Virus record (IMG/VR): IMGVR_UViG_3300044994_000102
Coordinates: 1-53,586 of that record
Direction: 5' to 3' (one strand)
DNA: 53,586 nt
DNA from: a virus
Lineage: Duplodnaviria > Caudoviricetes
Shown piece by piece: positions 1,021-38,918 of the stretch. A program made the translations under genes and the position numbers. The notes under the pieces were generated by a model, which had not been told where the DNA came from, did no database searches, and was given only the letters and a program-made list of their open reading frames with translations. Each line of letters opens with the position of its first letter. The first letter of the stretch is position 1.

Positions 1021-1761
1021 TTACAGCGCCTCGGCCCGCCGAATCACGTCCCCGTAGTACTCGAGTTCCCACTCGCGCCGACCGAATTCCGTCCCCCGGT
1101 GTCCGCCGAGAGACGCGACCCGGAGATGCTCGCGGGGCCAGCGCCCGCCGCCGTTCATCGCGTAGGCCGGGTGGGTCGGCAGTCCGTTCGCGGCCAGGTA
1201 GCCGAACACGTCGCCCCACCGCCACCAGCCGATCGGCCGTGCAGTGCGCTCTCCGACCAGCCCAAGTTTTTTGGTGATAATCTCCCGCACCCGCGACTCG
1301 TCCCGGCGGACACCGGAGATATGCCTCGCCGTGCCGAGCGTCTCGCGGGCGCGAGCGAACCCGTCGGCCGAGGTCCGCTCGCCGGTCTCGGGGCGTTTCC
1401 AGCCGCCGCCCCAGTCGATCGGGATCTCGAGATACGGCAGGTCCCTCGTGCGGAAAAACTCGTCGCGAACTGCCGGACAATCGGGGTTGAAAATCGGATC
1501 GACTTTTACCCACACCAGCGTCGGCACGTGCGCGAGCCGGTCCCGCACCCGCCACACGAGGTCCGCGACGACGACGGAATCTTTGCCCCACGACACGCCG
1601 AGGTAGGCGGGGCCGGCGGCCATGAACTCGACGACGGCTCGCTCTGACTGATCCACCAACCGGGCCAGCCGTGGTGAGTCCCCGTGTACGAGGTCGGCGG
1701 CGTACTCGTCCCGCCAGAGTGCGAGGTCCTCTTTGCGGTGGCGGTCGGACGGGATCAGCAC
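1021..1761 (-). CDS. cysH: CysH/PAPS reductase-family protein associated with type IV-B CRISPR-Cas
   Basis: PP-loop YLGVSWGKDS, GVRRDES, RPIGWWRWGDVFGYL..NGLPTHPAY; probable GTG start at 1761 overlaps the cas6e stop (ORF track extends to 1785). Confidence 0.85.
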   Translation of the reverse strand: MLIPSDRHRKEDLALWRDEYAADLVHGDSPRLARLVDQSERAVVEFMAAGPAYLGVSWGKDSVVVADLVWRVRDRLAHVPTLVWVKVDPIFNPDCPAVRDEFFRTRDLPYLEIPIDWGGGWKRPETGERTSADGFARARETLGTARHISGVRRDESRVREIITKKLGLVGERTARPIGWWRWGDVFGYLAANGLPTHPAYAMNGGGRWPREHLRVASLGGHRGTEFGRREWELEYYGDVIRRAEAL

Positions 1762-2330
1762 AACAGCAGCAGTCCCAACCCCCACGCCTTGCCGTGACCA
1801 ATGCCGTGCGTGACGGCGGCGCGGAACATCGCAGCGTCGATCACGGCGAGCGTGCCGGAGAAGTCGACGACCAGGATCGCCATGGTACGCCCGCCGTCCC
1901 GTACCTCCCAGCGGTCGCGTTGGACGCTCACGGAGTGCCCCGGCTTAAACCCGTGTCGCTCGCCCTGCCGCTGGAGCCACTCGAAGTAGATCTCGCGCTG
2001 GCGGTCCGCGTCGAGTACGCCGTACGCCGGGTCGCACCGGCGGTTCTTCCCGTTGATGAACTTCGTCACGGTCGGGTTGCAGCGGAGACGGAATCGGCGC
2101 TCGCCATCGAGCGGCGGCTCGAATGCCTCCGACGACATGACATCGGACACGGCCAACGGCAGGCGCGGAGCGAGCGCGACCAAAGAGGGGCCGTCCACCC
2201 GGTAGAGAAAATCCCTCGGGCTGTCCGGGTCAGCCGAGAACAACCTCATCGCCTCCTGGTGCGCCCAGTAGTGTTTGCACACGCCGGGCGGAGGGATCCC
2301 AAGCCGAACTTGCGTGAGCGTCAGGCTCAT
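1755..2330 (-). CDS. cas6e: Type I-E-like Cas6e (Cse3/CasE) crRNA-processing endoribonuclease
   Basis: YWAHQEAMRLF (catalytic His motif), FLYRVD, RFRLRCNPT, WLQRQGERHGF, VDFSGTL, C-terminal G-loop GIGHGKAWGLGLL; ATG 2330 overlaps the csf3 stop (ATGA). Confidence 0.88.
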   Translation of the reverse strand: MSLTLTQVRLGIPPPGVCKHYWAHQEAMRLFSADPDSPRDFLYRVDGPSLVALAPRLPLAVSDVMSSEAFEPPLDGERRFRLRCNPTVTKFINGKNRRCDPAYGVLDADRQREIYFEWLQRQGERHGFKPGHSVSVQRDRWEVRDGGRTMAILVVDFSGTLAVIDAAMFRAAVTHGIGHGKAWGLGLLLLC

Positions 2331-3013
2331 ATCGGCTCCACGATTTCGCAGTACCGGTCCCCGTGCCAGTACGGCGGGCAGCACGCGCCGAACGATTTGC
2401 GGTAGCCGACCAGGGCATTGGGCAGCTCGTCGCACAACGGTAGCGGGCGCATCAGCAGCGTGCCTTCCGGGGCGTCGGCGTACCACCAACACTCTCGGTC
2501 GGTCGGCTCGACCTCCCATCGGGACACGGCGCCGTACCCCTTCGCCACGCGCTGGCCGATGGCCTTGACCCTCCCGAGCGCCACCTCGATCGCTTCCCGG
2601 TCCGCCAGGCAGAACCAGACCACGCGCTCCACCCGCCGCACGTCGAGCGGGAGGCGGTAACTCTTGGTCCAGAACCCCACCGTGATCACCGTCTTTCGGT
2701 GCTCGGGGGCGAGGAGGTCGGCGTGCTCGACAGCCATCCGCTTGGTGATGTGCTCGACGGTAGTGGCGGCGGCTTCCTCCGCGATTGGCGACGAGCAGCA
2801 CGCGACCGGCCAGCCGCCGATGACCTCCCTCGCGACCGGGATCGGGATGTCGCCCGGTGGGTACACCGGCCGTTGCTTGTCGACCGTCCACCGCGTACCG
2901 GTCCCCCCGTGCTTGGCGACGCTGACCGAATACTCCAGTAGGGCGTCGAGCTGCGGCGGGGACCCGGCCATCGGGGCGGCCATGTGAGCGGTCACCTTCA
3001 ATGGCTCCGTCAC
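2327..3013 (-). CDS. csf3: Type IV Cas5-family subunit Csf3
   Basis: PLKVTAHM, LDALL, G-rich loop IGQRVAKGYGAVSRWEV, LMRPLP, PPYW; GTG 3013 overlaps the csf2 stop (GTGA). Confidence 0.85.
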   Translation of the reverse strand: MTEPLKVTAHMAAPMAGSPPQLDALLEYSVSVAKHGGTGTRWTVDKQRPVYPPGDIPIPVAREVIGGWPVACCSSPIAEEAAATTVEHITKRMAVEHADLLAPEHRKTVITVGFWTKSYRLPLDVRRVERVVWFCLADREAIEVALGRVKAIGQRVAKGYGAVSRWEVEPTDRECWWYADAPEGTLLMRPLPLCDELPNALVGYRKSFGACCPPYWHGDRYCEIVEPI

Positions 3014-3924
3014 CCCAGTAGCGCCTCCTGCGCCGAGCCCTTCTTGCCCTTCTTCGGCGCCCGGTAAAACGCATCGGTCAACCACTGGCGGCACTCGTCC
3101 CGGTGCTCCTCGACGTGGGCGAGGTAGGCGGCAACGGCATCGGCCCTCGTCTCGTCGTGCCCGAGGAGGACGGTCTTGAGCCGCCCGTGTCCGCGGGCCG
3201 CCTGCCCGCCGATGGTGCCGCCCGCGTTCGCCCACAGGAGGAGCGAGTGCAGCAGCGCCCCGAGCTCGAGCGGCGACGGGTGAAGGAGCGTGAACCCGTG
3301 CAGGAACATCGCGCCCCGCATGACCGCCTGACCCGAGAAGATCATGAGGCTGCTCTTGTCCTTCTCGGCGCCGGCCGGCAGGAGGTCCCCGGCCGACTTC
3401 TCGGCGTCGGATCGCGTGTACTGGTATCCGGAGATGTACGCGTGGGCCGGGTGGAACGTCACGCCGTCGGTGTCGAACCCGGGCGGCAGGAGCATCCGAA
3501 GCTGCGCCTCGTTCTCGCGGCAGAGGAGCGTGCCCCGCCAAACGTGCAGGCTGCCCGACAGCACCTGATCGGGGAGGCATCCGCCCAAGAGCCGGAACAA
3601 CGGGAACAGCCGGTACATCTCGGCGATCCGCGCGGTGTTCTCCCGGCCGGTGCTCTCGGTGAGGTTCCCGCCGTGGAGGAGGAAATTGAGTTGCTCGAGG
3701 CTGAGCTCACCCTTCAGGCCCATCCGCTCGACGAGGTGACGGGCACCGGGAGCGCGAACGCAGCGGTGGCGGATGGCGTTGCCGGACAGGAACGGAACCC
3801 ATCGGACGCCGTCGTTGGTTCGAACCGGTTCGATGGCGCACAAGGCTTCGTTGCCCTCCGTGCGGCTCATGTGGGTAATCGGGGACACGGCCTCGCTCAA
3901 ACAGTGAACGCTATAATTTTCCAT
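3010..3924 (-). CDS. csf2: Type IV Cas7-family backbone subunit Csf2
   Basis: SPITH, VPFLSGNAIRHR, FLLHGGNL, FPLFRLLGG, YQYTRSD, G-loop IGGQAARGHGRL; 304 aa. Confidence 0.9.
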   Translation of the reverse strand: MENYSVHCLSEAVSPITHMSRTEGNEALCAIEPVRTNDGVRWVPFLSGNAIRHRCVRAPGARHLVERMGLKGELSLEQLNFLLHGGNLTESTGRENTARIAEMYRLFPLFRLLGGCLPDQVLSGSLHVWRGTLLCRENEAQLRMLLPPGFDTDGVTFHPAHAYISGYQYTRSDAEKSAGDLLPAGAEKDKSSLMIFSGQAVMRGAMFLHGFTLLHPSPLELGALLHSLLLWANAGGTIGGQAARGHGRLKTVLLGHDETRADAVAAYLAHVEEHRDECRQWLTDAFYRAPKKGKKGSAQEALLG

Positions 3925-4390
3925 GCTCGACCCTCATCTCCAGCTTCTTCCAGTTCCACTGCTCCTTGCCGAGCACCAGCACCGCGTAGATGCGGGTCTC
4001 GACGTACCGGGCGAACGCCCGCCGCCACTCGACCGGCTTCTCCGTCAGCGCTTTCAGTAGCGCCGGGAGCTCCTCCGCCGAGCAGGCCCGTACCGGGTCG
4101 GCCTTGACGTGCTCCAGGCAGTGGTTCACAAACAGCTCCATGTTCCCGTCCCGCACCTTGGCGCAGGCCGTGCGCAGGCCGCTGTCAATCCTCGCCCAGA
4201 GCGTGAGCCGATCGAGCTCCTCGCCGAACAGGCGGGCCATTAAACAGGCCAAGCTGCCCGCCAGCTCCCGCATCTCCTGGTCGGCCGCTTCCGCAAGCGG
4301 CGTCTCCTGGTCGAGCAGTCCGGCTATCCTTCTTCGGAATTCCTGGTAGTCGATCGAGGGCAGGGCCTCCCTCGGGTGGGTAGATTCCAT
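3911..4390 (-). CDS. cas11: Type IV-B small subunit (Cas11/Csf4-like)
   Basis: 159 aa, predicted all-helical, between csf1 and csf2; ATG 4390 with AAGGAG RBS; assigned mainly by position and size. Confidence 0.65.
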   Translation of the reverse strand: MESTHPREALPSIDYQEFRRRIAGLLDQETPLAEAADQEMRELAGSLACLMARLFGEELDRLTLWARIDSGLRTACAKVRDGNMELFVNHCLEHVKADPVRACSAEELPALLKALTEKPVEWRRAFARYVETRIYAVLVLGKEQWNWKKLEMRVEHGKL

Positions 4391-5078
4391 CGCACGTCTC
4401 CTTATTGGCGGACAGCCAGCACGCGAGCCGGCTGACCGGCTCCTCCCGCACACGCTGCCACTCGGTTATCAGTTGCGCGCCCGTGGTCGGGAACCGCTCG
4501 ATGACGGCCATGCCGAAGCGGGCGTTCACCGTTTCGGCGAGTGCGGGCTTGCCGGTCGCGGCGACGAGTTTCCCGCACAGCTTGAGCCGCGCCGCGAGTT
4601 CCCACGGGCGGTAGGCGATGACCTGCTCTTCAAGCGTGCACACCACCTCGGAGCGGTCGTGATTCACCCGCCCGCGGTACAAGAGCTGCTTCTGCCCGCT
4701 ATCGGTGAGCACGAGCGCGAACGGCGGCTCGGGGGGCGAGATAAAGATCGGGCGGAGCAGGTGGAGGTGGGCTTTGGTCGCGGCGACGGCCCGGTCCTTG
4801 GTGATGACCCACGAGTACATGCGGGTCTTCTGGGCCTCCCGAACCTCGCCGTCGAGCAGCTCGATGTCGGCCCGCTCGTCCATGGCGATGACGCAGCCGC
4901 GACAGACGGCGGAGCTGCCGGGGCAGCGGACCCCGGACAGGTTGTTGAAGCTCTCCTTGACGTATTCGGACGTGGGGTAGGTGCCGTCGCACGCCCCGCC
5001 GCAGTAGAAGCAGGCGAGCGGGCCGATACACGGGGTGCCCTTGGCGAGTGCGAGTAGTTCGGGAACTGTTCGGGCCAC
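4185..5078 (-). CDS. csf1: Type IV large subunit Csf1 (Cas8-like)
   Basis: N-terminal Zn-binding CFYCG...SFNN...CPGSSAVCRGC, PPEPPFALVLTDSGQKQLLYR; first gene of the csf operon; GGAGG RBS. Confidence 0.85.
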   Translation of the reverse strand: MARTVPELLALAKGTPCIGPLACFYCGGACDGTYPTSEYVKESFNNLSGVRCPGSSAVCRGCVIAMDERADIELLDGEVREAQKTRMYSWVITKDRAVAATKAHLHLLRPIFISPPEPPFALVLTDSGQKQLLYRGRVNHDRSEVVCTLEEQVIAYRPWELAARLKLCGKLVAATGKPALAETVNARFGMAVIERFPTTGAQLITEWQRVREEPVSRLACWLSANKETCDGIYPPEGGPALDRLPGIPKKDSRTARPGDAACGSGRPGDAGAGGQLGLFNGPPVRRGARSAHALGED

Positions 5079-5129
5079 AATCCTCCATCATCGGCGCAAC
5101 CACGCCGCTGTCTGTTCGTCGCACGGTGG

Positions 5130-5151
5130 CAAAATCGTGTCAACGCCTTTG
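5130..5151 (-). promoter_or_regulatory. Operator/-35 element of the type IV cas operon promoter
   Basis: CAAAATCG-TGTCAA-CGCCTTTG, i.e. TTGACA on the minus strand inside the shared palindrome, about 50 bp upstream of csf1. Confidence 0.6.
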
Positions 5152-5256
5152 AGCCTTACGGCCCGCCTCTTTGCCTGTGACCGGGAGAGGCGGAAACCGG
5201 CCTATTACCAACGCATCCGGAGTGGGATGCCCTGAGGCACCCAACCGAAATCTCTG

Positions 5257-5694
5257 TTACTCTGGGGGCAAGTCTTTGTCCTCGGAGGTCTTGTGTCCGA
5301 TAAGCTCCTCGACTCCTCCACCGCCGCCGCTCTGTACGCCCTGCACGCCCTGGCGGTTAAAAGCACCCTGGCCCTCGACATCAACTACGACGGACTCCGC
5401 CCGCCTGAGTGCGCCTGGATTCTCCAGCTCTGGGATCCGGCCGAGCGAGAGATCACGACCGCCCGCGCCCCGACCCTCGCCCTGGCCGTGGCTGCGGCGC
5501 TCGACCAGGTGAGGGCCCAGAAGCTCGCCGGTGATTAGCCGGCGGGTCAGTTCGTCGATGCCCCGCCGCAGCGTGCGGTATCGCTCCTCGACGGCCGAGA
5601 CGTAATCCCGGATGACGGCGGCGTCCTCCTCCCGATAAATGGAGGCAAGTATGTCCTCGTAGGCGACCCTCTTCGCTTCAAGCTCTTTGTCCAT
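5257..5694 (-). CDS. Hypothetical protein
   Basis: AGGAGG RBS; N-terminal half helical and protein-like; C-terminal half overlaps 5293..5538 on the other strand. Confidence 0.5.
   Translation of the reverse strand: MDKELEAKRVAYEDILASIYREEDAAVIRDYVSAVEERYRTLRRGIDELTRRLITGELLGPHLVERRSHGQGEGRGAGGRDLSLGRIPELENPGALRRAESVVVDVEGQGAFNRQGVQGVQSGGGGGVEELIGHKTSEDKDLPPE
5293..5538 (+). CDS. Hypothetical protein (antisense to the surrounding operon)
   Basis: 81 aa, GGAGG RBS before the GTG, protein-like composition. Confidence 0.55.
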   Translation: MSDKLLDSSTAAALYALHALAVKSTLALDINYDGLRPPECAWILQLWDPAEREITTARAPTLALAVAAALDQVRAQKLAGD

Positions 5695-5780
5695 CTGCCT
5701 CCTAATCCGCTTTAGTTTTCTTGTTCTCGCGAACTATCCGCGAGTGAGAAGTGCAGCCACAATCGCCCTCCTTCTCCCCC

Positions 5781-6038
5781 TCATCCCCGCCTCGCCTTCT
5801 CGATTAGTTGCGCTATTGCCTCTTCGGCAGAACGCGGCCCGTCGTGACACCACTCGGAGCCTATGGAAAAAGCATTCTCCAACAAACCTCGCAGCTCGTG
5901 CTCGATGAACCAATCGATCCCAGAGAGGAAGACACCAGCTACAAAGTCGTAGTCTGCCTTCTCGCCAAGGGGGCCGATTGCCTCTTTGGCGTACTCCTCA
6001 GCCGCCTCTTCCGCCTTCGCCTTCGTCTTCTCGCTCAT
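5781..6038 (-). CDS. Hypothetical phage protein
   Basis: GAGGAGG RBS, ATGA overlap with the upstream gene, AEEYA...FLSGIDW pattern typical of small phage early proteins. Confidence 0.7.
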   Translation of the reverse strand: MSEKTKAKAEEAAEEYAKEAIGPLGEKADYDFVAGVFLSGIDWFIEHELRGLLENAFSIGSEWCHDGPRSAEEAIAQLIEKARRG

Positions 6039-6223
6039 CGCCTATTCCTCCTCGGCAACACCTCGACCACCTTGATCACCTTGAGCCCAACGGGGCGAAA
6101 GTTGGCGCAAAACTCCCTCGCGTCCTTTCGCGAGCCGAACGAGTCATAGATCACATCTCGGTTATGCTCCTCGTCACCGATCGTGACCCACCACACGCGG
6201 GTTTTCCTTGCTTGCTTCTTCAT
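6035..6223 (-). CDS. Hypothetical protein
   Basis: 62 aa, GAGGT RBS, coupled to the next gene. Confidence 0.6.
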   Translation of the reverse strand: MKKQARKTRVWWVTIGDEEHNRDVIYDSFGSRKDAREFCANFRPVGLKVIKVVEVLPRRNRR

Positions 6224-6255
6224 CGCTCTACCTCACTCGCCGCTGCCGCTGCCGT
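6215..6255. repeat. 41-bp exact direct repeat (copy 2 at 7547-7587)
   Basis: CTTCTTCATCGCTCTACCTCACTCGCCGCTGCCGCTGCCGT at both positions. Confidence 0.9.
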
Positions 6256-6352
6256 CGCCGCTGCCGCTGCCGCTGCCGTCGCCGCCGCCACTGCCGTTGC
6301 CGTTGCCGTAGCCGCCGCACCAAGGGCACGCCTTCAGCTCTTGCTCAGTCAT
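6233..6352 (-). pseudogene. Chimeric mini-ORF: Lar-like N-terminus fused to a Gly-repeat tail
   Basis: Translates as MTEQELKACPWCGGYGNGNGSGGDGSGSGSGDGSGSGE; ELKxCPxCGG resembles the start of Lar-family restriction-alleviation proteins, but the second Cys pair is missing. Confidence 0.55.
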
Positions 6353-6774
6353 TTCTCCTCTCCCGAACTATTCGAAATCTTCGAAGTGTTCACCTCCACC
6401 TTCTCGACGGGGACGGCATAGTAGTATCCAGACTTGTGATACTCGGGATCGTCGCGGATCAGAAAATCATACTCCTCTTCTGTAGCAGCCGGTTCAATGT
6501 GTACCTCCCCGTCTTCAACACGAAACCCAAGCCATACTTTTTCCGATGCCTCGATGCGTGCGCGGAGGGCGGCGATCTGCTGCTTCAGCTCCTCTATCTC
6601 CGCATCCTTGCTGCTCAATTGGCGCTCAAGGTCAGAGATGTACTGGTCCCTCGTCTCTATCTCCGCATCCTTCGCGACAAGGTGGGCACGGATGGCGTCA
6701 ATGGAAACAGGGGACAGCCAGCGGTCTTCCTCTAACGCTTCCATCGCCCTATCAAACGCTTCCTTCGTGCTCAT
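6349..6774 (-). CDS. Hypothetical coiled-coil protein
   Basis: 141 aa, repeated KDAEIE heptads, ATGA-coupled at both ends. Confidence 0.7.
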   Translation of the reverse strand: MSTKEAFDRAMEALEEDRWLSPVSIDAIRAHLVAKDAEIETRDQYISDLERQLSSKDAEIEELKQQIAALRARIEASEKVWLGFRVEDGEVHIEPAATEEEYDFLIRDDPEYHKSGYYYAVPVEKVEVNTSKISNSSGEEK

Positions 6775-7013
6775 TCCGCTTCCTTCTTGTCTTCGGCAAA
6801 GAGGGATTCGAGATCGGAGAGCATTACGAACCTTGCGTCTCCGTACATGCCGTTAAACGCCAATGCTCGACTCCTTGCCTCCTCGAGCACTGCCTTCGCG
6901 CCAGCTATGAATGATCCGTAGCTGCCAACGTAATCGCTGTTGAACATCTGATCCCGCACGTGCTTGTGCGCCATCTCCTCAGTCTTGCTGCTCACGCTCC
7001 TCCTTCTCCCCAC
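6771..7013 (-). CDS. Hypothetical protein
   Basis: Coupled ORF; true start probably the GTG (VSSKTEE) after AGGAG. Confidence 0.55.
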   Translation of the reverse strand: MGRRRSVSSKTEEMAHKHVRDQMFNSDYVGSYGSFIAGAKAVLEEARSRALAFNGMYGDARFVMLSDLESLFAEDKKEAE

Positions 7014-7213
7014 CTTCCGACTCGGACGCGGGGTCCGGCCTCACCACAACATGCCCCTTCAGCAGATCGACCGTGTTCTCGAACGCTGCGCGCAACTCGA
7101 TGGCCGCATCAAACCCGTCCTTCGTGCTCATTCCGCTATCTGCTCCGTAGTCGTGATACCACTGCGCCCAGTAGTCACAGTCCCCGCTCATCCCGCTTCC
7201 TTCTTCGTGCTCA

Positions 7214-7555
7214 TTAGGATCCCCGCTCCCAGATGCACGCACCGTCCCGCCACACTTCGAGCACCTGATCGGCGGTGTAGTTCATGTAATTGCCGACGGT
7301 GTTCGAGCCGAGGCCAAGGGCGGGTTTGATGACCACGATGTGACGGGTCTCGTCGCCCTCGCTCAGCGTGAGGCCGTCGCCCTGGACGATGTTCGGCATC
7401 GGCGGTGTGTTCGTCATGCGGCGGTAGAGCACGTACGTCTCGCCGGGCCGTACCTGAAGCGTTTGGTCCCAACTGCGGATGTCCGAGCCGTTGACCATGT
7501 CGCAAACTTCCTGCCATCGCCCCTCTCGGTACGGCAACACAAAAACCTTCTTCAT
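7214..7555 (-). CDS. Hypothetical protein
   Basis: 113 aa, GAGGT RBS lying within the 41-bp repeat. Confidence 0.65.
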   Translation of the reverse strand: MKKVFVLPYREGRWQEVCDMVNGSDIRSWDQTLQVRPGETYVLYRRMTNTPPMPNIVQGDGLTLSEGDETRHIVVIKPALGLGSNTVGNYMNYTADQVLEVWRDGACIWERGS

Positions 7556-7564
7556 CGCTCTACC

Positions 7565-7909
7565 TCACTCGCCGCTGCCGCTGCCGTAGCCGCTGCCGCT
7601 GCCGTCGCCGCTGCCGTCGCCCCTGCCGTCGCCGCTGCCGCTGCCGCTGCCGTCGCCGTCGCCCCTGCCGTCGCCACTGCCGCTGCCGTCGCCCCTGCCG
7701 TCGCCGCTGCCGCCGCCGCTGCCGTTGCCGCTGCCGTAGCCGTTGCCGCTGTCGCCGCCGCTGCCGCTGCCGACGCCGTTGCCGCCGCCGTCGCCGCTGC
7801 CGACGCCGCTGCTCCTGCCCCTGCCGCTGCCCCTGCCCCTGCCGTCGCCGCTGCCGTTGCCGCTGCCGCCGCCGTTGCCGCTGCCGCTGCCGTCGCCTAC
7901 TTCACCCAT
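7565..7909 (-). CDS. Gly-X (G-S/D/N/Y/R) repeat protein
   Basis: Nearly pure GGC-NNC hexamer array; overlaps the end of the upstream gene. Confidence 0.6.
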   Translation of the reverse strand: MGEVGDGSGSGNGGGSGNGSGDGRGRGSGRGRSSGVGSGDGGGNGVGSGSGGDSGNGYGSGNGSGGGSGDGRGDGSGSGDGRGDGDGSGSGSGDGRGDGSGDGSGSGYGSGSGE

Positions 7910-8211
7910 TCTGGTACCCCCTCAATGCTGATTCGCGCCCTGTCGCTGCAATCAAGGATCTCAAACGCATCCAGCAACTCAACACGCGAGACCGGCGCGG
8001 GGAATTTACAGTTGGACGGATCGCTCGTCCCAGTAGTAGCGAGCTGTGAGAGTGATGCCGCCCCGCTCCAAAACCAGAGCCGCCGAGCATTCCGAAGTAC
8101 GACTTCTCTCTCTTTGCGTGACACAAACACCCCGGCGAACACCCCTGCCAGATGGCTTCTCACAATCACGTATCGCTCTTCATCCTTCCCTTGTTTTGTC
8201 TCTGTTGACAT
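7897..8211 (-). CDS. DUF6948-like phage protein
   Basis: YVIVRSHLAGVFAG...VVLRNARRLWFWSGAASLSQLA; family usually adjacent to Gly-X repeats (recalled, not searched). Confidence 0.7.
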   Translation of the reverse strand: MSTETKQGKDEERYVIVRSHLAGVFAGVFVSRKEREVVLRNARRLWFWSGAASLSQLATTGTSDPSNCKFPAPVSRVELLDAFEILDCSDRARISIEGVPEWVK

Positions 8212-8257
8212 AAAATCCCCTTACTTTTCTACTTCAGATCCTCGATGCCCGCCCCCT

Positions 8258-8503
8258 TTATGGTCGCAGCGCCCGGCGAACGGCCTCCTCGAGCTCGCTC
8301 GTCTCCCGCCCGATGATCCGGACGATGGCTTGAACGGCCTCCTCGCGTCGGCACATGCCGGTTCGGACCTTATCGATTACCCCCATCACCTCCTGCTCGA
8401 GTGTCACCTGCTTCGGTGGCAGGTCAACGAACGCCCGCAGGTTCAGGCCATCACCTGCAAAGTTGGCGGGGATGTGTTTCGTGTCACCGTTCAGTTTCGA
8501 CAT
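8258..8503 (-). CDS. Hypothetical protein
   Basis: 81 aa, GGAGG RBS. Confidence 0.6.
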   Translation of the reverse strand: MSKLNGDTKHIPANFAGDGLNLRAFVDLPPKQVTLEQEVMGVIDKVRTGMCRREEAVQAIVRIIGRETSELEEAVRRALRP

Positions 8504-8516
8504 GGGCCTCCGTCAG

Positions 8517-8792
8517 TTACCTTCTCCAGACGTTCCACACCCGGCACGAGAACGGCTTCCGGAGCGCGTCCCGGCCGTAGATGTACCGACCACGGCACAT
8601 CACTCCGCCAGACCAGTACAGGACCGCCGGCGTGTTCCACGAGCATGACACGCGAGCGTTGTGGGTCCGGCCGTAGAGCACGCCGTTCCTGTGGTTGATG
8701 CGGAAATAACCCGGGACGACGTAGGCGCACTGGGCCTCGGCGGTGGCGACGGTGGTCAGGGCTGCGATGGTGGCGATGAGGATGCGCTTCAT
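8517..8792 (-). CDS. Small secreted Cys-containing protein
   Basis: Signal peptide MKRILIATIAALTTVATAEA; ATGA overlap with the upstream gene. Confidence 0.6.
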   Translation of the reverse strand: MKRILIATIAALTTVATAEAQCAYVVPGYFRINHRNGVLYGRTHNARVSCSWNTPAVLYWSGGVMCRGRYIYGRDALRKPFSCRVWNVWRR

Positions 8793-9055
8793 GACCGCAC
8801 CCGCTCCGCCCGTAGCCGCTCGATCTCATCGACCAGGACGATCGACCAGTCCCGGCTGTGCTCGTGCCGGGCCTTGACATCGGCCATGACCAGCTCAAGC
8901 ACCTGCTCAGGCGTCTCGCCTTTGTTTCGCAGGGTGGCGAGCTCGGCGGCGGCATTCGTCCGGCACGCGCCGGGGGTCTGCCGTATCCGCTCGACCTCCT
9001 CGACTAGTTTCGCGGCATCGTCGACCGTGCCATCGAACTTACTCCTCGGTTCCAT
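8789..9055 (-). CDS. Hypothetical protein
   Basis: 88 aa, AGGAGGAG RBS; first gene after the structured leader. Confidence 0.65.
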   Translation of the reverse strand: MEPRSKFDGTVDDAAKLVEEVERIRQTPGACRTNAAAELATLRNKGETPEQVLELVMADVKARHEHSRDWSIVLVDEIERLRAERVRS

Positions 9056-9245: not shown

Positions 9246-9537
9246 GCGAATCTCTTTGGCTGTGCAGCCGGAACACCACACCAGCCGCAGGAACAGCTCA
9301 GCGGCGAAGCACCGCCCGGTCAGGCCGAGGGCGGCGATCCACGCCTGGCCCTCGGTCGGCCCTGTTCCCCGAATCTCACTCGTCCTGTTGTCCACTATCG
9401 CCCAGCAGTTCATCGTTCTCCGGCCTCCTCACCCACAAAACTCCCGCCACGAAACCCAGCAGGAATCCGATCCATACCGCCATCACCCTAACCCCTCCAT
9501 CGAGCGTCCGGCCTCATGCCTCAACACACCCTGAATC

Positions 9538-9575
9538 CAAAGACATTGACTCATCTTTGCCTCGCGTGTCACCAT
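9538..9575 (+). promoter_or_regulatory. Rightward promoter with operator, upstream of the Cro-like gene
   Basis: CAAAGACA-TTGACT-CATCTTTG; TTGACT-N18-CACCAT; the ATG follows at 9582, so the transcript is probably leaderless. Confidence 0.6.
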
Positions 9576-9581
9576 AAATCT

Positions 9582-9893
9582 ATGCCCTACAACGAGATAA
9601 AGCGGCCCAAGAGTGCGAACCACATCAAGAGACTGTTTCAGTTGATCGCCGAACGGCACGGACGCCGCCACGAACTCGTACTCTGCGAACGCATCGACAT
9701 CGGGCCGCGGAGCGTGTGGGGCTGGACCCGGCGCGGTATCCCGGTGGGCTACTGGCCGCTGGTCGCCGAACTGGCGGGGGTGACGGTGGAGGAGGTGGCG
9801 GCGGGGCATCGGTGGTACGTTCGGGACCACGAGAGCCATCCATTCCGGCTTCGTCGTGGCAGAGCGGCCGGAGCTCCAGGAGCCGCTTCCTGA
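9582..9893 (+). CDS. Cro/YdaS-like HTH regulator
   Basis: LCERIDIGPRSVWGWTRRGIPVGYWPLVAELAGVTVEE resembles the Cro/YdaS HTH. Confidence 0.65.
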   Translation: MPYNEIKRPKSANHIKRLFQLIAERHGRRHELVLCERIDIGPRSVWGWTRRGIPVGYWPLVAELAGVTVEEVAAGHRWYVRDHESHPFRLRRGRAAGAPGAAS

Positions 9894-10155
9894 TCGCCTC
9901 CAAGTCCCAGCCGAGCGACTCGGCCACTTCCTGAGCCGAAAACCCTTTTGGCGCCGAGAAATCATCGAGGAACAGATACGCCGTGGCGCTCCTTCGGTCC
10001 TCCCGCTTCACGTTCACCGTTCCGCCGCGCCCACCACCAACGAAGTCAGCCCGGCTAAGAAAGTCACTCACGGCTCTGGAAAAGACCGCGGCCTGAAGAT
10101 TGTGCTCCGGGATACGGTTCGGCTCCTCCTCGCGGTCAATGGTGAAGTCGATCAT
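9625..10155 (-). CDS. Hypothetical protein, paralog of 16710..17042
   Basis: PEHNLQAAVFSRAVSDF...RRSATAYLF; the C-terminal low-complexity tail overlaps the Cro-like gene. Confidence 0.65.
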   Translation of the reverse strand: MIDFTIDREEEPNRIPEHNLQAAVFSRAVSDFLSRADFVGGGRGGTVNVKREDRRSATAYLFLDDFSAPKGFSAQEVAESLGWDLEAIRKRLLELRPLCHDEAGMDGSRGPERTTDAPPPPPPPSPPPVRRPAASSPPGYRAGSSPTRSAARCRCVRRVRVRGGVRAVRRSTETVS

Positions 10156-10157
10156 GC

Positions 10158-10982
10158 TTAAGTCGCCTCCGCAAACTCTTCCGCGGCCTTCTTCGCCCGT
10201 GCCTTGTCCTGCTCCGGGCACACCTGTCGGGCCGGGCAGAACCAGCACCACCCGCCCGCCTTCAGCTCACGAGGCTCCAACCCCATCATCTGCCTCACCG
10301 CCTTCTCGGCTCCGGCCTTGAGCTTCGCCTCCCACTCGTCGAGCTCCCACGCGGCGTACCACCACTCGGAGAAGAACTGCGGCAGGCGGGGCTGCACCAC
10401 CACCACCTTCACCTGCTCGAGCTTCTTCTTGCTGTTCCGTTTCAGGGCCGCTGCGTAGTACGCGAGCTGTACCGAGGTCTCCGGGTTGACCCGCTTCCCC
10501 TTGCCGTACTTCAAGTCCACCACCATCCCCGTCGCGGCGCCCTTCCTGACACCGGAGCACACAAAATCGAGGGTGCCGAACATCCCGAGATCTTGGTCCA
10601 AGACAAGCCGGTGCTCGATCCTGACCGCCGGCGGGGCGTCGAACGCGGCCACCTGATCCAGGCACACGTTCACGTAGGTCATGGCGTAGTCCACCATGCT
10701 CCACATCCGGCCGTCGCCCGTCGGGAACTCCGTGTCGGCGTACTCCGGGCGGAGGGTGTCAACCCACGCCTCGTCCAGCCGCCGCTCGTTACTTTCCCAG
10801 TGCCGGAGGATGCGCTCGGCCAGCTCGTGGCACCGCGTGCCCTCCAGGGCGTACGGCGCCGGCGGCTCCTCTGGTAGCCCCTGGGAAAGCCCGATGCTGC
10901 CGGGGCAGTTGAGCCACCGCTCGGCCCCGGAGGCAGAGCAGACGGCGTGAGCACGCCCCTTGTGGTCGGGGGCGGCGGTCAT
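10158..10982 (-). CDS. DUF2800 (Cas4-like PD-(D/E)XK) exonuclease
   Basis: HAVCSASGAERWLNCPGS, EGTRCH, FGTLD, VVDLKYGKG, QLAYYA, WCWFCPARQVCP. Confidence 0.88.
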   Translation of the reverse strand: MTAAPDHKGRAHAVCSASGAERWLNCPGSIGLSQGLPEEPPAPYALEGTRCHELAERILRHWESNERRLDEAWVDTLRPEYADTEFPTGDGRMWSMVDYAMTYVNVCLDQVAAFDAPPAVRIEHRLVLDQDLGMFGTLDFVCSGVRKGAATGMVVDLKYGKGKRVNPETSVQLAYYAAALKRNSKKKLEQVKVVVVQPRLPQFFSEWWYAAWELDEWEAKLKAGAEKAVRQMMGLEPRELKAGGWCWFCPARQVCPEQDKARAKKAAEEFAEAT

Positions 10983-15850: not shown

Positions 15851-16212
15851 AGCGGACCCATCGGACCCATCAGCGGACCCGTGCGGACCTTTGGTTTCCG
15901 CACGGGTCCGCTGCTTTTCGCTAATAGTTCCACACACCTACGGTAGTTGCGGACCTTTGCGGACCCATTTTCGGAATAATTGTTCCGGCGAGTTTTTCCC
16001 GGTTACTCCTCTCTCCCCCCATACCCCCCTCTCTATCTATACCTGTTTGAGTGTCTCACGCGGAGTAGTCAGAAAAAGGGTCCGCAAAGGTCCGCAAACG
16101 AGGTAAACACCACAAACCATAGGAGAATTCGTGCGGACCTTTCAAGGCTCGAAAGGTCCGCAATGGGTCCGCAAAGGTCCGCAATGGGTCCGCAAATGTC
16201 CGCAAAGGTCCG
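15851..16212. repeat. Iteron cluster, probable replication origin
   Basis: About 16 copies of a (GC)GGACC core, mostly GCGGACC on the left and GGTCCGC on the right, around a pyrimidine-rich centre directly after the primase-helicase. Confidence 0.75.
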
Positions 16213-16264
16213 CTGCGGGTGGTAGGTAGTGGCCCCCTGGCTGGCAGTGCTACCCTCGGGGCAG

Positions 16265-18438: not shown

Positions 18439-18954
18439 ATGCCGAAAAATAGAACGCCCGAGATTCAACACCTCAAGACGGCCGCCCTCATCCCGTACGC
18501 CCGGAACGCCCGCACCCACACGGAGGCGCAGGTGGCCCAGATCGCGGCCAGCATCCGCGAGTTCGGGTTCACCAACCCGGTGCTGGTCAAGGGGGACAAA
18601 ACCGTCATCGCGGGGCACGGGCGGCTTCAGGCGGCGCACCTGCTCGGGCTGGAAACGGTGCCGTGCCTCGTGCTCGACTACCTGACCGACACGCAGGCGA
18701 AAGCGCTCGCGATCGCCGACAACAAGATCCCGCTCAACTCCGGCTGGGACGTCGACTTGCTCAAGCTGGAGATGGAAGAGCTTCAGGAAAAGGGCATAGA
18801 GGTAGCACTGCTCGGTTTCAGCGAGGCAGACCTAGCAACGATTTTCCCGGTGGTGCCCGACTTCCAGCCGGTGAGCGTTGACGAGCAGGGAAAGCTCGAT
18901 GAGAAGAAGAAAGCTATGTGTCCCAACTGCGGCCATGAGTTCGAACCGAAGTGA
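18439..18954 (+). CDS. ParB/Srx N-terminal domain protein
   Basis: LIPYARNARTH, IAASIREFGFTNPVL, IAGHGRLQAA, IADNK, C-terminal CPNCGHEF. Confidence 0.9.
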   Translation: MPKNRTPEIQHLKTAALIPYARNARTHTEAQVAQIAASIREFGFTNPVLVKGDKTVIAGHGRLQAAHLLGLETVPCLVLDYLTDTQAKALAIADNKIPLNSGWDVDLLKLEMEELQEKGIEVALLGFSEADLATIFPVVPDFQPVSVDEQGKLDEKKKAMCPNCGHEFEPK

Positions 18955-19648: not shown

Positions 19649-20115
19649 AGGGCCGGAAGCCGACGCCGAATAACCTGAAGCTCTTGACGGGCAATCCGGG
19701 CAAGCGGCCAATCGCCGACGAGCCCGAGAGTCCTCTCCTGCCGGCCGACGACGAGCCGCCGGCGTGGCTGCACGACGACGCGAAACAGTTCTACCGCGAG
19801 ATCCTTCGGACCCTTTCCACCATGAGGGTCGCCACTGAGGCCGATCGGCTCGGCATCATCGCGTTGGCGCAATCACTGGCCGAGGTGAAGATCGCCCACG
19901 AGCAGATGAACAAGTACGGCCGGGTCATCAAGGACAAGTCCGGTGGCGCTACTCGGAACCCGTACGCCGTCCACGCGGCGCAGTTCATCGCGTTCGTCCG
20001 CCAGTTCATCACCGAGTACGGGCTCACCCCGTGCAGCCGGGCGAGGCTCATTGCGAAGGCCGAGGGGGGCGAGGAAGACCCGTTTACCAAGTACCTGAGC
20101 GGTGGCAAACAGTGA
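19645..20115 (+). CDS. terS: Terminase small subunit, P27 family
   Basis: GRKPTPNNLKLLTGNPGKR, PPAWL, NPY, EYGLTPCSRAR. Confidence 0.92.
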   Translation: MKGRKPTPNNLKLLTGNPGKRPIADEPESPLLPADDEPPAWLHDDAKQFYREILRTLSTMRVATEADRLGIIALAQSLAEVKIAHEQMNKYGRVIKDKSGGATRNPYAVHAAQFIAFVRQFITEYGLTPCSRARLIAKAEGGEEDPFTKYLSGGKQ

Positions 20116-21787
20116 GTCCGAACATCCCGCCGAGCGGTACATTCGCCACGTCCTTGACGGAACCCAGCTCGCCTGTCAGTTCGTCCGCCTGGCCGTCGAG
20201 CGGCACGTCTCCGACCTGAAGAAACAGGCAGACTCCAACTACCCCTTCTACTTCGACCCGGCCGCCGCCCAGCGGGTCATCGGCTTCTTCCAGTTCTGTA
20301 ACCACGTCGAGGGCAAGTGGGCCGGGGAGCCCATGGTCCTGGAGCCGTGGCAACAGTTTGCATTGTGGGTGCCGTTCGGCTGGAAGCGGAAGGGGAGCGG
20401 GCTTCGCCGGTTCCGCCGGGCGTACGTGGAGGTGGCCCGCAAGAACGGCAAGAGCACCTGGACCGCCGGCCTGGGGTTGTACTTCCTCATCGCCGACGGG
20501 GAGCCCGGTGCGCAAGTTTACTCGGCCGCCACCACGAGGGACCAGGCGAAGATCATCCACACGGCCGCCAGCCGCATGATCAAGGTGAGCCCGTACCTGT
20601 CCCGGATGGTGCGAACTGTCAAGAATAACTTGTCGGTTGTCGAGACGTTCTCGAAGTTCGAGCCGCTCTCCGCCGACTACAACACACTTGACGGCCTTTC
20701 CCCGTCGGCGGGGTTGATAGACGAGGTACACGCCCACCGAAACCGCGGGGTGGTGGACGTCATCGAGACCGGCATGGGCGCCCGCCGGCAGCCGATGATG
20801 TGGATGATCACGACGGCCGGCATCAGCACGGCCAACTCCATCGCGCTCGAGTTCCGGAACCACGGCGAGCAGGTGCTGAAGGGCATCCGGGAGGACGACG
20901 CCTACTTTCCCCTCATCTACACGCAGGACGACGGGGACGACTGGCTGGATGAGAAGCTCTGGACCAAGAGCAACCCGTCGCTCGGGGTGTCGGTCAACAT
21001 CGATGAGCTCCGGGACCTGGCGCTGAAGGCGAAAGAAATCCCCGCCGCGCAGAACAACTTCAAGACGAAGCGGCTCAACATCTGGTGCAACTCCAGGAGC
21101 AGGTGGGTGCCTGTCGAGCGGTGGGACGCGTGCAAGGAGGAGTTCGACCTAAAGGAGCTCCAAGGGAAAGAGTGTTACGCTGGCCTCGACCTGTCCACCA
21201 CCACCGACCTGTCTGCGCTGGTGCTCGTGTTCCCGTGGGCGGACGACCGCTACCGGGTGTTGCCGTTCTTCTGGGTGCCGGCGGAGAATGCCGACCTCCG
21301 GGCCCGGCGGGACCGCGTCCCGTACCCGCAGTGGATCCGGGAGGGGTACATCACGGCGACGCCGGGGAACGTCATTGACTACGGATTCATCCGGAAGGCC
21401 ATCACCGGCCTGGCCGACGTGTACAGGCTGAAGGAGCTGGCGGCCGACCCGTGGAACGCGACTCAAATTTTGCAACAGCTTCAGGAGGAGGACGGCATCA
21501 AGGTGGTCGAGATGCGGCAAGGGTTCGCCTCGATGTCGGCCCCGATGAAGCAGCTGGAGACGCTCGTGATGAGCCAAAAGCTCCGGCACGACGGGAACCC
21601 GGTCATGCGCTGGATGTGGGACAACGTGAGCGTGAAAATGGACCCGGCTGGGAACGTGAAGCCCGACAAGGAGAAGTCCGCCGAACGCATCGACGGGGTC
21701 GTGTCGCTGGTCATGGGGGTGGGGCGGGCGGCCCTCCGGAAAGAGGTCGTCAACCCGTACGAGACGGGCGGCCTGTTCGCCGTCTAG
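20102..21787 (+). CDS. terL: Terminase large subunit
   Basis: LEPWQ, VARKNGKS Walker A, IDEVH, ITTAG, GLDLSTTTDL, RIDGVVS. Confidence 0.95.
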   Translation: MANSESEHPAERYIRHVLDGTQLACQFVRLAVERHVSDLKKQADSNYPFYFDPAAAQRVIGFFQFCNHVEGKWAGEPMVLEPWQQFALWVPFGWKRKGSGLRRFRRAYVEVARKNGKSTWTAGLGLYFLIADGEPGAQVYSAATTRDQAKIIHTAASRMIKVSPYLSRMVRTVKNNLSVVETFSKFEPLSADYNTLDGLSPSAGLIDEVHAHRNRGVVDVIETGMGARRQPMMWMITTAGISTANSIALEFRNHGEQVLKGIREDDAYFPLIYTQDDGDDWLDEKLWTKSNPSLGVSVNIDELRDLALKAKEIPAAQNNFKTKRLNIWCNSRSRWVPVERWDACKEEFDLKELQGKECYAGLDLSTTTDLSALVLVFPWADDRYRVLPFFWVPAENADLRARRDRVPYPQWIREGYITATPGNVIDYGFIRKAITGLADVYRLKELAADPWNATQILQQLQEEDGIKVVEMRQGFASMSAPMKQLETLVMSQKLRHDGNPVMRWMWDNVSVKMDPAGNVKPDKEKSAERIDGVVSLVMGVGRAALRKEVVNPYETGGLFAV

Positions 21788-21856
21788 GTCGTGGCTATCC
21801 CCTGGCGGCCGTTTGGGGCAGTATGGGCCTGACACGTCAATGATTTGCGTCACCGG

Positions 21857-23545: not shown

Positions 23546-24506
23546 GATCATCGCCGTCCCGCACTTCGGTCGAGTTCACGATTACGTCGGGGCGTGGGCG
23601 ATCGAGCCCGTCTCGGCGAACGCGCTCCTGGCGATGGTCCGGTCGACCGACCTGGTCGCGCACGTGGCCGACTCGAAGGAGAGGGCGCTCGAGATGCGGT
23701 CGGCCATGACCGTTCAGCCGGACGGCCGGGGCAAGGCGTTCGCCATGGTGGGGATCTCCGGCGTCATGATGAAGCACGCGAGCTCCTTCGGCGGCTCGGG
23801 CACGGTCCAGATCCGGCGGGACATCCGGAACGCCGCGGGCAACGACGACATTTCGGCCATTCTGTTGAACATCGACAGCCCGGGCGGGACCGTCGCGGGA
23901 ACAGCCGACCTGGCGGACGAGGTGCGGGCCGCGACCAAGAAGAAGCCGGTGTACGCGTTCGTCTCCGACCTGTGCGCCTCGGCGGCGTACTGGGTGGCGA
24001 GCCAATGCGACGCGATCTTCGCCAACAACGCCACCGCCCTCATCGGGTCGATCGGCACCGTCATGACCATGTACGACATGAGCAAGGCGGCGGCCGACGC
24101 CGGGATCGAGACGCTGGTGTTCGCCACCGGCCCGTTGAAGGGTGCGGGGACGCAAGGGGCGGTCGTGACCGAGGAACAGCGGGCCTACTTCCAGACGCTC
24201 ATCGAGGACTCGCAGAAGAGCTTCGACGCGGCCGTCAGGAAGGGCCGGAGCCTCACCGACCTGCAGCTCAAGAGCGTGCGGTCCGGCGGCGTGTTCGGCG
24301 CCGAGGACGCCCAGGAGCGGAAGCTCATCGACGGCATCCAGTCTTTGGAGGCTACCGTCGACGCGCTTGTGAAGGCGGCGCACGCCCGGGGCCGGAGGGC
24401 CGAGGGCGAGGTGGCGATTCGAGCTAAGGAGGAGCAAGAGCAACCGGCCGCCACCTCCGCGGAGCCGTACCTACTCAAAGTTCGGATCTTGCGAGCCGCG
24501 TCATAG
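23529..24506 (+). CDS. S49 (SppA/ClpP-fold) prohead protease
   Basis: LNIDSPGG, CASAAYWVASQ, GSIG; GGAGG RBS. Confidence 0.9.
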   Translation: MEQQPEIIAVPHFGRVHDYVGAWAIEPVSANALLAMVRSTDLVAHVADSKERALEMRSAMTVQPDGRGKAFAMVGISGVMMKHASSFGGSGTVQIRRDIRNAAGNDDISAILLNIDSPGGTVAGTADLADEVRAATKKKPVYAFVSDLCASAAYWVASQCDAIFANNATALIGSIGTVMTMYDMSKAAADAGIETLVFATGPLKGAGTQGAVVTEEQRAYFQTLIEDSQKSFDAAVRKGRSLTDLQLKSVRSGGVFGAEDAQERKLIDGIQSLEATVDALVKAAHARGRRAEGEVAIRAKEEQEQPAATSAEPYLLKVRILRAAS

Positions 24507-24691
24507 TCTGTCACTTTCATTGCAGGTGCGGGGGCTCCGTCGGTTCCGTCGAACACGACTCCCCTGCTCGTAACTCACCAGCGGCCCGTCGGCCGTCTCA
24601 CGTTACCCAACGCAACACCACCGCTGTATCAACACATCCCTCCCCCTCGGGAGGGGAGGTCAACGCCTAGCGTGTATTTGAATGAGGAATT

Positions 24692-26044: not shown

Positions 26045-26052
26045 TAGACGGC

Positions 26053-26077
26053 GCGGGGGCGGAGCTTCCGCCCCCGC
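26053..26077 (+). other. GC hairpin after the major capsid gene
   Basis: GCGGGGGCGGA-GCT-TCCGCCCCCGC with no U tract (stabiliser or pause site). Confidence 0.5.
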
Positions 26078-26112
26078 AACATGAACAGAAAGGAGACTTT
26101 TTAGAGGACATT

Positions 26113-26580: not shown

Positions 26581-26590
26581 GCACTAACTC

Positions 26591-26620
26591 CCCCGGGCGG
26601 TAACGCCGCCCGGGGCATTT
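26591..26620 (+). terminator. Terminator-like hairpin
   Basis: CCCCGGGCGG-TAACG-CCGCCCGGGG followed by CATTT. Confidence 0.55.
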
Positions 26621-26632
26621 CACCCGAGGCCC

Positions 26633-28019: not shown

Positions 28020-28026
28020 GAGGAAC

Positions 28027-28416: not shown

Positions 28417-28449
28417 CGTGATTATAATTATTTCGTTTCCCAGAGGGAT

Positions 28450-29214: not shown

Positions 29215-29221
29215 GAGGGGT

Positions 29222-33682: not shown

Positions 33683-33683
33683 C

Positions 33684-37591: not shown

Positions 37592-37603
37592 GCAAGGAGG
37601 CAT

Positions 37604-38874: not shown

Positions 38875-38918
38875 CCGGTAGCGCCCTGAGCCCGCCTGCG
38901 GCACACTGAACCCAGACT

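Follow-up and report, generated by a model that had tools for sequence, protein, structure and literature searches.

The tailed-phage record IMGVR_UViG_3300044994_000102 of IMG/VR (53,586 bp; "the window" below is this entire record) carries an operon that is, by gene content, a type IV-B CRISPR-Cas (short palindromic repeats, clustered and regularly interspaced, with their associated genes) system, and within it lies a gene of the Cas6e (Cse3/CasE) family. Sequence comparison and structure modelling have shown this Cas6e to be structurally complete, to keep its catalytic histidine and G-loop, and to be under purifying selection. The gene is read, from the phylogeny and context of its relatives, as having been captured once, in a terminal subclade of a large phage IV-B family that lacks cas6. 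The role tentatively favoured for it, held with a little less than even confidence, is that Cas6e captures the precursor CRISPR RNA (pre-crRNA) of a host type I-E system for the Csf complex as a means of counter-defence.

The operon lies in the left arm of the phage among small leftward genes, where six genes run on the minus strand from 5078 down to 1021 in the order csf1-cas11-csf2-csf3-cas6e-cysH-like, every junction overlapping. The genes and one motif upstream of them are as follows (aa, amino acids).

4185–5078, minus strand: csf1, Cas8-like large subunit, 297 aa; PADLOC typeIV_Cas8 model PDLC01574 at 9.1e-64 over residues 5–230
3911–4390, minus strand: cas11, type IV small subunit, 159 aa; PADLOC typeIV_Cas11 model PDLC01573 at 1.6e-35
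3010–3924, minus strand: csf2, type IV Cas7 backbone subunit, 304 aa; PADLOC typeIV_Cas7 model PDLC01572 at 2.4e-79
2327–3013, minus strand: csf3, type IV Cas5, 228 aa; PADLOC typeIV_Cas5 model PDLC01727 at 1.4e-33
1755–2330, minus strand: cas6e (Cse3/CasE family), 191 aa; PF08798 at 94.8 bits (cut-off 25) and TIGR01907 at 80.7 bits (cut-off 45.2)
1021–1785, minus strand: cysH-like PP-loop enzyme (CasCysH type), 254 aa when read from GTG 1785; PF01507 at 28.4 bits (cut-off 22.5)
5130–5151, minus strand: palindromic promoter/operator-like motif upstream of csf1, whose operon strand shows TTGACA in the manner of a −35 box

Cas6e and the type IV-B operon that holds it

The first-pass annotation of this DNA had allowed that 1755–2330 might fail to match Cas6e, a possibility that was rejected when the product passed both the Pfam and the NCBIfam cut-off. 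Its residues 21–190 align with E. coli CasE (4qyz_K, E 3.5e-9), setting Y21 and H24 opposite Y17 and H20, the latter of which we take to be the catalytic histidine of CasE. In an alignment of 58 Cas6e sequences, H24 does not vary, nor do the glycines of the G-loop (G176, G178, G184, and G186), and the retention of these motifs, as first annotated, is thereby upheld. The AlphaFold2 (AF2) model of the protein has a predicted local distance difference test (pLDDT) value of 95.7 and a predicted template-modelling (TM) score (pTM) of 0.89; a Foldseek search with it returned Cse3/CasE chains in all of its top 11 rows (TMq 0.69–0.77), consistent with the double ferredoxin-like Cse3 fold, and the best solved matches (TM 0.74–0.77) were Cse3 of T. 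thermophilus and CasE of E. coli. A predicted complex of Csf2 with Cas6e scored 0.00, which is informative in neither direction.

Three pairwise comparisons of cas6e, including those with the metagenome contigs L001 and L002, at 59–70% identity, gave ratios of nonsynonymous to synonymous substitution rates (dN/dS, Nei–Gojobori) of 0.29–0.42, against 0.26–0.39 for csf1 and csf3 and 0.49–0.59 for the cysH-like gene, the fastest of the set; all of these ratios lean upwards, since the strong bias at third codon positions (GC3) probably causes dS to be underestimated. Among the four close Cas6e homologues, 81 columns are invariant, H24 and the G-loop included, and the reading frames are intact. Generic Cas6e models match the protein at 6.4e-30 and 4.5e-28, far above the type IV Cas6 models at 1.8e-8 and 4.2e-6, which makes the gene look like an acquisition separate from that of type IV-A.

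The six genes form one translationally coupled operon. The overlapping run and its GTGA and ATGA couplings had been recognised in the first-pass annotation and were borne out by coordinates, profile matches, and junction sequences: the csf3 start lies over the csf2 stop in GTGA at 3013–3010, the cas6e start over the csf3 stop in ATGA at 2330–2327, and cas11 overlaps csf2 by 14 nucleotides (nt). The overlap between cas6e and the cysH-like gene is 31 nt if the latter starts at GTG 1785, or 7 nt (GTGCTGA) from GTG 1761, which lies over the cas6e stop and is the more probable start. At 4185–4390 on the minus strand, the csf1 frame extends for 206 nt, its last ~68 codons, into cas11 in a different frame, and the csf1 family models end at about residue 230 of 297; either a disordered tail overprinted in GC-rich DNA or a stretch that truly codes twice may be involved. 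Overlaps of csf1 with cas11 of roughly 150–240 nt, estimated from frame and alignment coordinates, were also seen in loci L002, L005, L006, L021, and L028, and one of 4 nt in L025.

The effector genes are divergent type IV genes, as the NCBIfam equivalogs for Csf1, Csf2, and Csf3 match only under their cut-offs (Csf1 against TIGR03114 at 5.4e-10 and 39.3 bits, under a cut-off of 140 bits; Csf3 against TIGR03116 at 2.6e-12). The cas11 product had no sequence match in Pfam, NCBIfam or the Protein Data Bank (PDB). As a single sequence, Csf2 found only one PDB sequence match, the Csf2 of 7jhy (8.2e-5), and a profile of 32 Csf2 sequences, in a comparison with PDB chains, ranked the "Cas7c" chain of 11fs (4.5e-13) ahead of 7jhy (2.5e-6). 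On these profile scores the phage IV-B clade may be nearer to the Cas7 of type IV-C than to actinobacterial IV-B. The ranking fits a remark in the literature that IV-B is heterogeneous in its phylogeny and takes its definition from architecture.

No CRISPR array was found in the 53.6-kb record by Tandem Repeats Finder (TRF), a repeat finder or a k-mer chain scan, the last of which recovered the control arrays of L003 and L004, and no Rfam family reached its gathering score in the window. Searches of the record for Cas1, Cas2, Csf4/DinG, and cas3_core were each negative (0 of 1 record) with their positive controls detected, and the only helicase called was of the SNF2 type, in the replication module, RecD not having been searched for with a model of its own. 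The earlier description of a phage-borne operon without array, cas1, cas2, cas3 or dinG therefore stands, and an array just to the left of the window, for which it had left room, is unlikely because the record is estimated to be complete. Neither an array nor cse1, cse2, cas7 or cas5 of type I-E accompanies cas6e anywhere in the record, its neighbours being csf3 and cysH.

With csf1, cas11, csf2, csf3, and a cysH-like gene present, and with no helicase, nuclease or adaptation gene in the operon and no array, the assignment is to type IV-B; the Cas6e inside the operon departs from the usual lack of Cas6, so that the locus is filed as a variant and not as a typical member. Types IV-A, IV-D, and IV-E were rejected for want of a helicase and an array, and type IV-C was rejected on the match of the large subunit to Csf1 models and not to a Cas10-like HD protein. 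Published accounts describe IV-B generally as being without cas6 or arrays, and treat its guide and function as unresolved (PMC8175902, PMC7038947, PMC13676074). The background given in the first-pass annotation was thus right in general, whereas the uniqueness that it implied was overstated: IV-B systems borne by phages, prophages, and archaeal viruses have already been published (PMC7038947, PMC10848311), and Pinilla-Redondo et al. (2020) mention Cas6 as an exception seldom met in IV-B ("only 12 instances"), one that the text at hand leaves without analysis (PMC7038947). Cas6-bearing IV-B loci are hence rare and not unprecedented, and some of the 12 published ones may share the present architecture. 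Searches of the literature on type IV-B, that of Planctomycetes included, on CasCysH, and on phage-encoded Cas6 or anti-CRISPRs brought up no account of a phage IV-B system with Cas6e.

Relatives of the variant and comparison with known systems

A word-indexed search recovered only the four close homologues of Cas6e, and an exhaustive HMMER search of 1.84 billion representatives recovered 1,841 relatives, yet a single cluster at E ≤ 1e-30. The top-scoring sequences outside that cluster are ~41% identical over nearly the full length, with none above 45% among the full-length matches listed, and the nearest named ones are ordinary type I-E CasE proteins. Further loci of the order csf3-cas6e-cysH, a search for which had been proposed at the first pass, were found on two more metagenome contigs, L001 and L002. 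The Cas6e homologue P0002 and the 73%-identical Csf2 P0007 each lie on a contig of 53,250 bp.

Relatives of Csf2 are far more numerous (474, the top 120 at 53–73% identity), and 31 loci with such a relative were examined, 11 on genome contigs and 20 in IMG/VR. In none of the 24 loci whose Csf2 is at least 38% identical did a Cas6e match turn up, although four of these loci are truncated close to the operon; their usual order is csf1-cas11-csf2-csf3-cysH. This cas6-less family occurs on viral contigs and mostly Planctomycetota metagenome-assembled genomes (MAGs). In a Csf2 tree built by a quick method without bootstrap, the window, L002, P0007, P0006, and P0009 form a clade (Shimodaira–Hasegawa-like approximate likelihood-ratio test, SH-aLRT, 99) nested inside cas6-less loci, the context of P0006 and P0009 being undefined. 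Scans of IMG/VR with single Cas6e or Csf2 proteins returned nothing, and the Csf2 alignment alone gave matches.

A second case was met in L033, a 56.9-kb IMG/VR record with a protein named by NCBI under Hyphomicrobium sulfonivorans. Its positions 4693–8915 hold csf1-cas11-csf2-cas6e-like-csf3-cysH-like, with a Csf2 only ~25% identical to that of the window and a Cas6e-like protein that matches the Cas6e profile at an hhalign probability of 98.4% and keeps the histidine; a scan with this protein as query found only itself. L033 represents a second, independent recruitment of a Cas6e-family gene into IV-B, at another position in the operon.

The corresponding genes of 24 related loci are homologues of the cysH-like gene. 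Its SWGKDS PP-loop motif is retained by at least 95% of the 25 homologues that were aligned, among which no cysteine is conserved. A CysH or 3'-phosphoadenosine 5'-phosphosulphate (PAPS) reductase proper was considered and ruled out on this lack of a conserved cysteine together with equivalog scores far under their cut-offs (NF002537 at 20.5 bits against 154, TIGR00434 at 17.4 against 165). The csf3-cysH junction, in which cas6e sits in the window, is occupied in L012, L017, L019, L022, L027/L031, and L034 by a second PP-loop protein (SGGKDS) of ~350–430 aa, which in both loci scanned, L017 and L034, consists of a PAPS reductase domain and DUF3440 (IbrA-like). Other cargo comprises a ParB-like gene (L034), a DNA methylase (L019), and a methyltransferase fragment (L011), and in L016 a radical SAM protein lies between csf2 and csf3. 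Cas6 models found no match among the open reading frames (ORFs) that fill the csf3-cysH gaps of relatives. The IV-B operons of this family seem to attract DNA-modification genes.

The small ORFs that flank the operon are not counted as part of the system: those at 36–224, 272–547, 608–940, 5257–5694, and 5781–6038 had no homologues in any locus examined and, apart from a weak RHH match, could be assigned to no family of Pfam or PHROG.

Compared with the plasmid-borne IV-B system of Mycobacterium sp. JS623 (7jhy), the window has the five-gene core in common and both are without an array, adaptation genes, helicase or nuclease; the window differs in its Cas6e within the operon, in its location on a tailed phage, and in a very distant Csf2 (E 8.2e-5). 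Its CysH-like protein agrees with CasCysH as reviewed in being a PP-loop protein with no conserved cysteine (PMC8175902). With the 12 published Cas6-bearing loci and L033, the window shares the IV-B core, a Cas6-family gene, and a cysH-like gene, whereas L033 has its cas6e-like gene between csf2 and csf3 and two I-E-like hairpins that the window lacks. The Cas6e itself is of the same family and fold as type I-E CasE/Cse3 and has the same catalytic histidine and G-loop, at 191 aa where its nearest relatives mostly have about 205–235 aa, and unlike type I-E CasE it is not encoded with cse1, cse2, cas7, cas5, cas3, cas1, cas2 or an array. A type IV effector with a Cas6 borrowed from type I is also the arrangement of IV-A3 (Cas6e-like) and IV-A1/2 (Cas6f-like) (PMC8175902, PMC7038947), but DinG and an array belong to IV-A, from which cas11 and cysH are missing. 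The IV-B systems of archaeal viruses (Fuxivirus and a Methanoperedens virus) share with the window the combination of IV-B and cysH on a virus genome and differ in being without Cas6; that of Fuxivirus has a mini-array of two repeats (PMC10848311), the window none.

The phage and its probable host

The record is one linear contig without terminal repeats and has a CheckV completeness of 100. Its identity as a tailed phage rests on PHROG matches for a large terminase (6e-183), a portal (4e-120), a major head protein, and a tail fibre, to which a primase/Prim-Pol, an SNF2 helicase, an exonuclease, a Gp2.5-like single-stranded DNA-binding protein (SSB), a small terminase, and an endolysin can be added; no tRNA genes were found in the window. 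Among 50,697 GenBank phages no near relative was found, neither megablast with 20 kb nor tblastn with Csf2 giving a match, and the large terminase subunit (TerL) is at most 44% identical to that of any phage among the matches listed.

Planctomycetota are, with moderate confidence, the probable host phylum. Csf2 relatives were met in 11 genome loci, five of which bear the title of a Planctomycetota MAG, the best match (Phycisphaerales, 57%) among them, the remainder being Micavibrio, Omnitrophota, Acidobacteria, and three distant Chloroflexota, and the DNA of the terminase and portal genes is 65–74% identical to Planctomycetota genomes, the single phylum compared. DNA sequencing runs that contain the phage sequence bear the label hot springs or microbial mat metagenome; since they could be the source sample itself or duplicates of it, they do not count as independent evidence for a habitat. 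The sequencing-run search returned no RNA dataset holding the phage sequence.

The operon may be regulated together with other early genes. A 22-nt palindromic pattern (CAAAG.CG CGTCAA CG.CTTTG type) has five matches in the phage against none expected in 100 shuffles, all in the left third of the genome (3–24, 5130–5151, 9224–9245, 9538–9559, and 17366–17387), and its two perfect copies show a compensatory change between the arms. It is probably, to judge from this pattern, a promoter/operator common to leftward and rightward early genes, in which case the operon would belong to a co-regulated gene set. Neither the 5' leader nor the region 3' of cysH folds better than shuffled sequences (z +0.42 and +0.40).

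Elsewhere in the genome, a TrwB/TraG-like coupling protein (51198–53072), a DUF932 protein (46578–47516), a ParB_N protein (18439–18954), and an HTH_3 repressor-like protein (48074–48718) were identified, and no tyrosine or serine recombinase was found; such a combination might indicate that the phage lives as a phage-plasmid or does not integrate. At 15851–16215, in the gap that follows the primase gene, a GGGTCCGC-type unit of 10–21 nt recurs in a cluster of direct and inverted copies, which look like iterons or an origin. A long repeat of 6/12/18 nt at 7565–7909 codes for a Gly/Ser/Asp-rich ORF of 114 aa, and a shorter copy of it lies 1.3 kb off at 6237–6315.

Candidate RNA substrates and the role of Cas6e

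The phage was searched for type I-E repeats using a repeat shape derived from five Planctomycetota arrays. A strict stem pattern and two full-repeat patterns with up to three mismatches gave no match, a looser stem pattern gave none against 1.7 expected, and the I-E handle motif occurred 24 times against 30 expected, i.e. not above chance. Solitary repeat units or hairpins of the RNA anti-CRISPR type likewise gave no match in a search that covered I-E-type repeats only. In the lack of any I-E-like repeat, a canonical phage-encoded substrate is disfavoured and the pre-crRNA of a host I-E system becomes the leading candidate. The interpretation made at the first pass is supported in part: the proposal that this variant can mature its own guides gains plausibility from the conserved catalytic and RNA-binding motifs, a dN/dS like that of the csf neighbours, the confident Cse3-like model, and the independent recruitment in L033; delivery of the CysH-family enzyme to RNA-specified sites, likewise suggested there, is conjecture.

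In the mechanism proposed, the products of csf1, cas11, csf2, and csf3 would build a nuclease-free type IV-B Csf ribonucleoprotein, to which Cas6e, taken from a type I-E system, would supply what IV-B normally lacks, namely defined recognition and cutting of a hairpin RNA and capping of the complex. Cas6e would bind and cut the repeat hairpins of host I-E pre-crRNA and stay on the 3' hairpin as in Cascade, seeding a Csf2/Cas11 filament on the spacer part. Host crRNAs would in this way be diverted from Cascade into a phage complex unable to recruit Cas3, which would amount to counter-defence, and the CysH-like enzyme may then act on the bound RNA or on what the bound RNA pairs with. Viral repeat-like RNAs are reportedly able to act as anti-CRISPRs. 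Comparable modes are seen in CRISPR-associated transposons (CASTs), which bind host crRNAs through Cas6 (PMC11656645), and in viral homologues of cas genes, which inhibit CRISPR immunity (bioRxiv 10.1101/2023.06.24.545427); like the window, these are cases of a mobile element with CRISPR parts and no memory of its own, the likeness being one of possible mode and not of membership, and the window, unlike CASTs, has no transposase.

A link between this phage IV-B family and I-E RNA may be offered by L005, a cas6-less relative on a contig of a Phycisphaerales MAG that also holds a I-E Cas6e and an array, and it is counted in favour of the capture of host pre-crRNA on the strength of its repeat-like sequences. 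Downstream of cysH, among small genes at 9302–10191, L005 has four intergenic hairpins that fit CCC(C)GCC-loop-GGCGGG(G). An NNAAC(C/T)G tail comes after three of them, and the tail of the remaining one contains an extra base; the tail recalls the end of a I-E repeat, and the array repeat of the same MAG has the same stem type and an AACCG end. It is possible that these hairpins are solitary I-E-like repeat units, i.e. RNA anti-CRISPRs or guide sources. Among the window and the 33 IV-B loci scanned, recurrent hairpins of that polarity were found in L005 and L033 only.

Several points weigh against the capture of host pre-crRNA. A Cas6e-like match was found in just 14 of the 401 sampled genomes of the phylum to which the Phycisphaerales MAG G001 belongs. 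In a check for spacers against the phage, in which one 20-kb query (20001–40000) was compared with the same 401 genomes, the matches were many and weak, and none of the 12 short ones examined (91–100% identity) lay in an array. The lone Cas6e cluster, with outsiders at ~41% identity, implies that the capture was not recent and that the repeat specificity cannot be read from the sequence. According to PMC8175902, the sole purified IV-B complex, which was without Cas6, bound heterogeneous RNA and not the co-expressed I-E crRNA, and PMC7038947 reports that IV-B correlates negatively with other CRISPR-Cas systems in its hosts. Finally, the I-E-like hairpins of L033 itself indicate that a Cas6e-bearing IV-B system can carry its own RNA, so that the window may hold a non-canonical substrate.

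An extension of the same idea, in which Cas6e loads host I-E crRNAs, many of them directed at this phage or its rivals, and the Csf complex brings the CysH-like enzyme to mark or shield matching sequences chemically, or to mark rival elements, is regarded as improbable; the DNA-modification genes that are often found at the csf3-cysH junction of relatives fit such a modification theme. If it were true, IV-B with Cas6e would constitute an RNA-guided, nucleic-acid-modifying counter-defence that marks or shields the very sequences which host immunity has learned to attack, or marks rival elements.

It is rather unlikely that Cas6e instead matures a phage-encoded hairpin RNA outside any array, serving as a fixed guide or scaffold, with targeting set by the phage against, for example, host defence genes or rival elements. 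The archaeal-virus IV-B system with a mini-array (PMC10848311) is a published case in its favour. Also in its favour is the presence in L033, at 9439–9509 and ~520 bp downstream of cysH, of two CCCCGC-N4-GCGGGGAACA hairpins set 55 nt apart near a Cas6e-like IV-B locus, with no other match in that record and none for a control pattern; these could be a degenerate mini-array or operators, and their intergenic position suits operators equally well. The window has two GC hairpins of its own on the operon strand (245–264 and 584–603), each with an 8-bp GC stem and a tetraloop followed by the ribosome site of the next gene, and their stems differ by a compensatory change. Their G/C polarity is nevertheless the reverse of that seen in I-E repeats, their folds reach only modest z-scores (−1.75 and −2.73), and they lie inside a tandem duplication, directly downstream of cysH, of two paralogous minus-strand ORFs (272–547 and 608–940, 91 and 110 aa, 77% identical in DNA), so that their likeness is partly inherited; they may be elements of mRNA processing or stability. 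The window, moreover, offered no I-E-type hairpin, no excess of the handle motif, and no Rfam match.

Somewhat less likely again is a role for Cas6e alone, not as a Csf subunit but as an anti-CRISPR decoy that occupies or cuts host I-E repeats and so blocks the assembly of Cascade. Inhibition of CRISPR by viral cas homologues is documented (bioRxiv 10.1101/2023.06.24.545427), and the csf3-cysH junction accepts varied cargo in relatives. Against this, the ATGA and GTGCTGA overlaps tie the translation of cas6e to that of csf3 and cysH, the position of cas6e is conserved in L001 and L002, and the appearance of a Cas6e-family gene inside IV-B effector operons on two occasions argues for a subunit role.

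A low probability is also given to the view that the Csf complex works on heterogeneous or host non-CRISPR RNA while Cas6e performs another RNA task, such as the processing of polycistronic phage transcripts at intercistronic hairpins. In its favour, both the window and L005 have, downstream of the operon, modules of a hairpin followed by a ribosome site that separate small genes, and heterogeneous RNA was indeed recovered with the sole purified IV-B complex, an actinobacterial one (PMC8175902). Most relatives manage without Cas6e, however, which means that a general housekeeping role is not needed. To our knowledge, the characterised members of the Cas6e family are all repeat-specific, a further point on the opposite side. 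That cas6e is a decaying or neutral passenger, as its scarcity (only four close homologues) and its place at an insertion hot spot might suggest, is very improbable and already disfavoured by the dN/dS of 0.29–0.42, the intact frames, the 81 invariant columns, and the high-confidence model.

A paper of 2026 still calls the function and guide RNA of type IV-B unclear (PMC13676074). A Cas6e maintained by selection within IV-B predicts an RNA with a Cas6e-type hairpin handle whose loading depends on His24, and it thereby makes the question of the IV-B guide RNA testable, with the large cas6-less sister group as natural controls. Together with L005 and L033, the operon would form part of a pattern in which phage IV-B systems touch the RNA biology of type I-E in a poorly studied host phylum.

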